From assembly GCF_003018115.1 (NCBI RefSeq), contig NZ_CP027457.1: a DNA stretch of 64,000 nt; one strand, given 5' to 3'. This DNA comes from Escherichia coli (GTDB taxonomy: Bacteria; Pseudomonadota; Gammaproteobacteria; Enterobacterales; Enterobacteriaceae). Shown here in pieces: positions 1,263 to 2,179 of the stretch (the first letter of the stretch is position 1; every line of letters starts with the position of its first letter). The notes below the pieces were generated by a model that worked only from the letters and a program-made list of their open reading frames with translations, was not told the DNA's origin and did not search any database. Position numbers and translations under genes: made by a program.

Positions 1263-2099
1263 ATGGCTTTTCAGGTAAAAATTCATCAAATTCGGGCTTT
1301 TGTTGAAGTGGCTCGTCAGGGCAGCATTCGCGGAGCGAGCCGAATGTTGAATATGTCGCAACCGGCACTGAGTAAATCTATTCAGGAGCTGGAAGAAGGG
1401 TTAGCGGCGCAACTCTTTTTTCGCCGTAGTAAAGGCGTGACGTTAACTGATGCCGGTGAAAGTTTTTATCAGCACGCCAGTCTTATTCTTGAAGAGCTGC
1501 GCGCAGCCCAAGAGGATATTCGCCAACGACAAGGGCAACTGGCAGGGCAGATTAATATCGGCATGGGGGCCAGTATTTCCCGCAGTCTGATGCCAGCTGT
1601 CATATCTCGTTTTCATCAGCAGCATCCGCAGGTAAAAGTACGCATTATGGAAGGGCAACTGGTGTCGATGATTAATGAATTGCGTCAGGGAGAATTGAAT
1701 TTCACCATCAATACCTATTATCAGGGACCGTACGACCACGAATTTACTTTTGAGAAATTACTGGAAAAGCAATTCGCGATCTTTTGCCGCCCGGGACACC
1801 CCGCCATTGGTGCCCGTTCGATCAAACAGTTACTGGATTACAGCTGGACAATGCCGACGCCACACGGCAGCTACTACAAACAGTTGAGTGAATTGCTTGA
1901 CGATCAGGCGCAAACGCCACAGGTCGGTGTAGTCTGCGAGACGTTCTCAGCCTGTATCAGTCTGGTGGCAAAAAGCGATTTTCTCAGCATACTGCCTGAA
2001 GAAATGGGCTGCGATCCCTTGCACGGACAGGGGCTGGTGATGTTGCCGGTTAGAGAAATTTTTGCCGAAAGCGGCCTATTATTTGATTCAGCGGCGTGA
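1263..2099 (+). CDS. abgR: LysR-type transcriptional regulator AbgR, C-terminus altered by apparent +1 frameshift (278 aa here)
   Basis: Track ORF 278 aa with N-terminal HTH (QPALSKSIQELE); an alternative frame continues ...AAYYLIQRRDSRQTPLTASLITQFRRECGYLQS to a TAA near 2170. Confidence 0.85.
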   Translation: MAFQVKIHQIRAFVEVARQGSIRGASRMLNMSQPALSKSIQELEEGLAAQLFFRRSKGVTLTDAGESFYQHASLILEELRAAQEDIRQRQGQLAGQINIGMGASISRSLMPAVISRFHQQHPQVKVRIMEGQLVSMINELRQGELNFTINTYYQGPYDHEFTFEKLLEKQFAIFCRPGHPAIGARSIKQLLDYSWTMPTPHGSYYKQLSELLDDQAQTPQVGVVCETFSACISLVAKSDFLSILPEEMGCDPLHGQGLVMLPVREIFAESGLLFDSAA

Positions 2100-2179
2100 T
2101 AGTCGCCAGACACCACTGACCGCGTCATTAATCACGCAATTCCGGCGAGAATGCGGCTATCTGCAAAGTTAAAACTGCA

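Follow-up and report, generated by a model that had tools for sequence, protein, structure and literature searches.

A lineage-specific frameshift has probably inactivated the abgR regulator gene in a clade of Escherichia coli that includes O169:H41 ETEC

The window considered here, meaning the whole 64,000-nucleotide stretch of Escherichia coli DNA that was analysed, begins within the abg locus. The minus strand carries the 5′ part of abgA at positions 1-1087; this gene, which heads the presumed target operon abgABT, is open over all 362 codons present and is annotated as abgA in identical genomes. The 175-bp divergent intergenic region that follows (positions 1088-1262) holds the promoters and the presumed operator, and it is 100% identical to its K-12 counterpart. 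From position 1263 the plus strand carries abgR, which lies in the position expected of the orthologous gene, divergent from abgABT and followed by mcaS and smrA. The mcaS small RNA gene (positions 2179-2274, minus strand) is convergent with abgR and corresponds to the K-12 annotation. It belongs to the McaS/IsrA family (Rfam RF00115), which it matches over the full length of the model (1-96 of 96) with 118.4 bits against a threshold of 42. Its terminator is formed by a hairpin at about 2188-2216 and a U-run at 2181-2187. A simple terminator scan around mcaS, with a pattern that admitted loops of up to 8 nt, gave no match, and the loop of the actual hairpin is 11 nt.

The abgR frame extends from 1263 to 2099, as established from the list of open reading frames, Pfam matches and alignment to K-12 abgR, and consists of 278 codons followed by a premature TGA at 2097-2099. 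Its 278-residue product ends in LPVREIFAESGLLFDSAA, as the sequence-only reading had described. Alignment to K-12 abgR indicates that residues 1-266 are native, and that the 12 out-of-frame codons at positions 2061-2096 (plus strand), encoding FAESGLLFDSAA, stand in for native residues 267-302. A remnant of the native frame specifying those residues (LPKAAYY...GYLQS) is preserved at positions 2062-2172 on the same strand, and is recognised by its translation, by identity with the K-12 tail and by alignment with the C-terminus of the regulator TsaR. Translation in the +1 frame from 2062 yields LPKAAYYLIQRRDSRQTPLTASLITQFRRECGYLQS, which ends at a TAA at 2170-2172; the K-12 MG1655 gene is 909 nt long and encodes 302 residues, the final 36 of which are exactly LPKAAYYLIQRRDSRQTPLTASLITQFRRECGYLQS. 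The proposal that a frameshift swaps out the last 36 residues of a 302-residue AbgR, which can be reconstituted on paper as 278 − 12 + 36 = 302, is therefore borne out by both the length and the tail of the K-12 protein. The premature TGA falls 73 nt ahead of the native stop codon, and the remnant is no longer translated within AbgR. As had been noted, the native stop adjoins the mcaS terminator (TAA at 2170-2172, stem at about 2188-2216); mcaS itself lies 6 nt past this stop codon and is left unchanged by the lesion.

The lesion resides at codon 267, where positions 2059-2064 (plus strand) read TTTTTG and intact alleles read TTTTA, as judged from alignments to K-12, to GF3-3 and to other carriers, and from an allele survey. 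K-12 and GF3-3, which is the nearest in-frame relative, have GAAATTTTACCG (GAA ATT TTA CCG, encoding E-I-L-P), and the window has GAAATTTTTGCCG. Thus a run of four T has become a run of five, and the A that follows it in intact alleles has been replaced by G (A>G at 2064). The net result is a +1 indel at nucleotides 796-797 of the K-12 gene, after which a premature stop is encountered. The sequence-only reading had described a single-base change in a T-run, which is correct for the net effect and overlooks the adjacent A>G; deleting one T gives back the native protein solely by virtue of TTG and TTA being synonymous Leu codons. It had also placed the run near 2068-2075, and the five T are in fact at 2059-2063, about nine bases further left.

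For the allele survey, 5,426 complete E. coli genomes were searched with 45-nt sequences that had the site in the middle, such that hits were seeded only by an exact match at the site. TTTTTG was present at the site in five of these genomes, and neither of the conceivable intermediates, the in-frame TTTTG or TTTTTA, was recovered from any of the 5,426. Likewise, exact look-up among about 15 billion proteins returned no record of the IFTESG intermediate proteins in an R264 background. We also considered whether the lesion could have been templated through a single template switch. The longest nearby repeat across it is 8 nt (TTTTTGCC, with an inverted copy GGCAAAAA at 1967-1974), and repeats of at least 8 nt are seen at 28% of random sites, which is the level of chance, and this candidate was rejected. 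The A>G at 2064 does create a perfect 6-nt direct repeat, TTGCCG (2062-2067), with its other copy at 2043-2048, 19 nt upstream; a repeat of this length is expected by chance. Separately, three independent lesions of the abg locus, namely the one described here (2059-2064), one in abgR of strain M8 (at about 912-923 of locus L020) and one in abgT (at about 2685 of locus L026), each combine a one-base change in the length of a T4 run with a substitution that is adjacent or 2 nt away. This shared pattern could reflect a common mutational signature or could be a coincidence, and a search for a template sequence that might underlie it yielded chance-level repeats only.

The same allele recurs in records that are independent of one another. 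A 1,101-nt stretch (window positions 1200-2300) is identical in five complete genomes of O169:H41 ETEC strains (F9792, F8111-1SC3, F6326-C1, 2014EL-1345-2 and L7_E1373), and the exact 278-residue product is encoded on 330 contigs, spread over some 667 index blocks of the 15-billion-protein collection. Its carriers include strain TA447, other NCBI drafts, the 5.76-Mb chromosome CP050207 and an ENA metagenome scaffold, and the window is 100% identical over 8,099 nt both to TA447 (ADIZ01000017) and to that scaffold. A related form, P0031, which has TTTTTG together with an aspartate at residue 146, occurs in Logan assemblies built from public sequencing runs and in ENA metagenome assemblies. The allele is also already known in kind, in that public annotation flags identical alleles: PGAP labels the identical abgR ‘frameshifted’ in both of the RefSeq records inspected, those of F9792 and L7_E1373. 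With five complete genomes, 330 contigs and three sources (NCBI, Logan and ENA) in agreement, we consider it highly probable, from sequence comparisons, that the lesion is a genuine frameshift allele that has been inherited vertically.

Some of the history of this allele can be read from a second change, a G>A at position 1698 (plus strand) that was identified by alignment and that produces D146N within the conserved G-x-L-D-F motif of the effector domain, a motif that is also present, with the Asp, in TsaR. The full-length protein with R264 and D146 is very common, with no fewer than 1,000 contigs encoding it; the truncated product occurs both with D146 (P0031) and with N146 (the form in the window); and the full-length protein with N146 is absent among the approximately 15 billion proteins available for exact look-up. 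Given that the frameshifted D146 form is on record and the full-length N146 form is absent, the order of events was the common allele, then the frameshift, then D146N. The arrival of D146N after the frameshift appears to fit relaxed constraint. The frame upstream of the lesion is open across the entire clade with only one amino-acid change, too small a body of data to establish relaxed selection.

Among complete genomes, those of the O169:H41 ETEC are closest to the window on both sides of abgR, with a match that is split by a prophage; they differ from it by eight single-nucleotide polymorphisms in the first 8.4 kb, and they are 99.6-99.7% identical to it over positions 8600-20000. The TTTTTG allele thus marks a clade that comprises at least two sublineages. 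Seven of the eight polymorphisms fall in a stretch of roughly 1 kb in dgcM (window positions 3866-4833), a pattern suggestive of a small patch of recombination in one or other sublineage. The prophage of F9792 is a Rac-like element (intR, xisR, ralR, recET, kilR and more) inserted at ttcA, whose 3′ end corresponds to window positions 8437-8464 (the F9792 element is seen from position 21080 of locus L012). The window is without a prophage at ttcA and runs directly into chromosomal genes toward ompN, ydbH and nifJ.

What remains of the protein can be stated in terms of its domains. The HTH_1 domain (PF00126) is intact at residues 8-66, with 74.5 bits against a cut-off of 26.6. The LysR_substrate domain (PF03466) is incomplete: its match covers residues 91-265 and profile positions 2-176 of 209, compared with positions 2-208 in K-12. 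The gene therefore still encodes the helix-turn-helix domain, the linker helix and a stretch that covers 85% of the effector-domain profile. A search of solved structures matched TsaR (PDB 3FXQ, E = 4e-43), which is the closest solved homologue and aligns across the lost segment LPKAAYYLIQRRDSRQTPLTASLI, and also matched RipR, in which the terminal strand β10 and helix α8 form part of RD-I (PMC9637912). The 302-residue tail is the conserved form; this holds for K-12, for nearly all of the sampled in-frame alleles among 4,224 abgR-bearing complete genomes, and for the alignment with TsaR. A single-sequence AlphaFold2 model of K-12 AbgR reached a pLDDT of 44, too low for use, and the structural argument is drawn from homology only.

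By homology, then, the break at residue 267 would remove core elements of RD-I, namely the last β-strand and α-helix, and the 278-residue AbgR in all likelihood misfolds or cannot assemble, with its function lost. We infer this loss of function from the disappearance of the conserved end of the effector domain, which is evident in the Pfam coverage, the TsaR alignment and the RipR structure. In the course of events, an ancestor with the common R264 allele underwent the change from TTTTA to TTTTTG at codon 267. Translation now leaves the native frame after Ile266, adds 12 unrelated residues and ends early, such that, by homology, the last β-strand and α-helix, which in LysR-type regulators fold back and complete RD-I, are lost. 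The truncated AbgR would be misfolded or fail to assemble, its function would disappear, and the locus would subsequently drift, first through D146N and later through the breakage of abgT or abgB in separate sublineages.

The condition of the neighbouring genes among carriers appears to fit such later decay following the abgR frameshift. TA447, which is of the window type, retains undamaged copies of abgA, abgB and abgT along with an undamaged promoter region, and thus there is no wholesale decay of the locus in that strain. In 2014EL-1345-2, a single substitution in abgB generates a stop at codon 31 (position 1425 of locus L009, equivalent to position 4425 of locus L029); the other carriers have an intact AbgB of 481 residues. 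In CP050207.1 and GCA_965180585, which are separated from the window by only 2 SNPs across 8.1 kb, abgT carries a frameshift, TTTTAA>TTTCA (T4 to T3 with an adjacent A>C), at about 2685-2689 of loci L026 and L027, and its product is split into pieces of 380 and 144 residues. CP050207.1 carries Ns and a shortened dbpA, and the quality of that assembly is uncertain.

Loss of abgR is also common outside this clade. No megablast match to the gene (query, window positions 1263-2172) was obtained in 1,202 of the 5,426 complete E. coli genomes, or 22%. A flanking query that includes mcaS matches 5,305 genomes of the same set, and a large minority therefore have the neighbouring sequence without the regulator. 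Where the gene persists, it has been broken independently on several occasions: the P0005 lineage, which is 0.8% divergent from the window, has gained a T in the same T4 run (TTTTTA); strain M8 has gained one in another T4 run of abgR; the O55:H7 strain TB182A has a 10-bp deletion; and Shigella dysenteriae has yet another frameshift. The M8 and TB182A alleles are flagged by PGAP. In addition, AbgR forms that are truncated at the N-terminus are encoded on hundreds of contigs. The regulator is thus dispensable and often lost in E. coli, and we regard the allele in the window as an ordinary, lineage-specific frameshift pseudogene of such a gene.

We nevertheless weighed the idea that the truncated AbgR still works in an altered manner, whether as an effector-blind DNA binder, an autorepressor or a poison subunit, and has been kept for that purpose. 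The HTH_1 domain and linker are intact, 176 of the 209 effector-profile positions are left, the promoter and operator region is unchanged, and the upstream open reading frame remains open throughout the clade on hundreds of contigs, all of which would suit a retained product. However, the lost segment comprises a core RD-I strand and helix in solved homologues, D146N struck a family-conserved Asp after the frameshift, and the target genes abgT and abgB have been independently broken in sublineages. Moreover, the many ways in which abgR has been lost elsewhere resemble neutral or favoured loss rather than the acquisition of a new function. For these reasons we judge an altered function to be unlikely.

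A different proposal is that the lesion is reversible or is bypassed, either because the T-run is phase-variable or because ribosomal or transcriptional slippage restores the frame. The independent gain of a T in the same run in the P0005 lineage, and in another abgR run in M8, could be cited in its favour. Yet the tract is only five bases, and the contingency tracts and slippage sites known to us are longer than this. A phase-variable contingency locus would be expected to show a long tract and both ON and OFF lengths within one lineage, and the window allele exhibits neither. The great majority of abgR genes are in frame, and no revertant was encountered, given that full-length N146 is absent from the approximately 15 billion proteins and TTTTG from the 5,426 complete genomes; this lack of an in-frame revertant leaves both phase variation and recoding unsupported. 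Similarly, a programmed frameshift or slippage site should be conserved among orthologues, and the site is present in only five of the 5,426 complete genomes, while inspection by eye of GAA ATT TTT GCC revealed no +1 slippery motif or stimulatory element. We therefore assign a very small probability to a switch or recoding event.

Finally, the sequence-only reading had allowed that the fifth T might be a homopolymer miscall, with the real abgR intact, and, although the lesion does touch a homopolymer and four of the five complete carrier genomes come from one accession series (CP0242xx), we regard a sequencing or assembly artefact as exceedingly improbable because the same allele recurs across unrelated projects and data types (complete genomes, many NCBI drafts, short-read Logan assemblies, ENA metagenome scaffolds and the LR882990 chromosome) together with a linked A>G substitution and a derived variant, D146N, of which both forms are seen, because a five-base run is short for systematic miscalls, and because the in-frame TTTTG that a miscall would mask is found in none of the complete genomes surveyed.

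The finding matters little beyond annotation: the gene should be labelled a frameshifted pseudogene, and the 278-residue open reading frame should not be propagated as a protein. The allele does offer a clade marker, since TTTTTG at codon 267 is shared by TA447-like strains and the O169:H41 ETEC whether or not D146N accompanies it, and it is a further instance of the repeated natural loss of a poorly understood abg regulator. The regulatory role of AbgR is only ‘suggested’ in the literature (PMC11794783), and its loss could leave abgABT either silenced or derepressed. Its carriers would also serve as natural abgR mutants for studying the effect of AbgR on abgABT or on environmental survival. 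In K-12, deletion of abgR reduced survival over 42 days in soil to less than 1% of wild type, with partial complementation (PMC11794783). On account of that phenotype, the sole lead of its kind, we raise the speculation that the loss of AbgR has not been neutral in a clade that includes the globally spread O169:H41 (L7) ETEC, and that abgR-null lineages are less persistent outside the host. We consider this improbable; were it true, the stepwise decay of the regulator first, then D146N, and then abgT or abgB would mark a shift in lifestyle.

Among known systems, the closest intact counterpart is AbgR of K-12 (b1339, YdaK), a LysR-type regulator encoded divergently from abgABT. The window gene has approximately 99.2% nucleotide identity with it, the promoter regions are identical, the neighbours are the same (abgA upstream and divergent, mcaS and smrA downstream), and both genes encode HTH_1 and LysR_substrate domains. 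The two differ in that the window product has 278 rather than 302 residues and carries S264R, K243I and D146N. The PGAP-flagged genes A5T63_RS07490 of F9792 and JLZ97_RS12545 of L7_E1373 are base for base the same allele over window positions 1200-2300, although the ETEC chromosomes that carry them are set apart by the eight polymorphisms in the first 8.4 kb and by the Rac-like prophage at ttcA, which the window lacks. In P0005, M8, TB182A and Shigella dysenteriae the gene was frameshifted independently, in other backgrounds and at other positions or in other sequences. TsaR of Comamonas testosteroni (3FXQ) aligns to AbgR residues 5-293, including the C-terminal strand and helix that are lost here; it is a distant homologue with another effector and another regulon, and the comparison is used only for mapping the lost segment.
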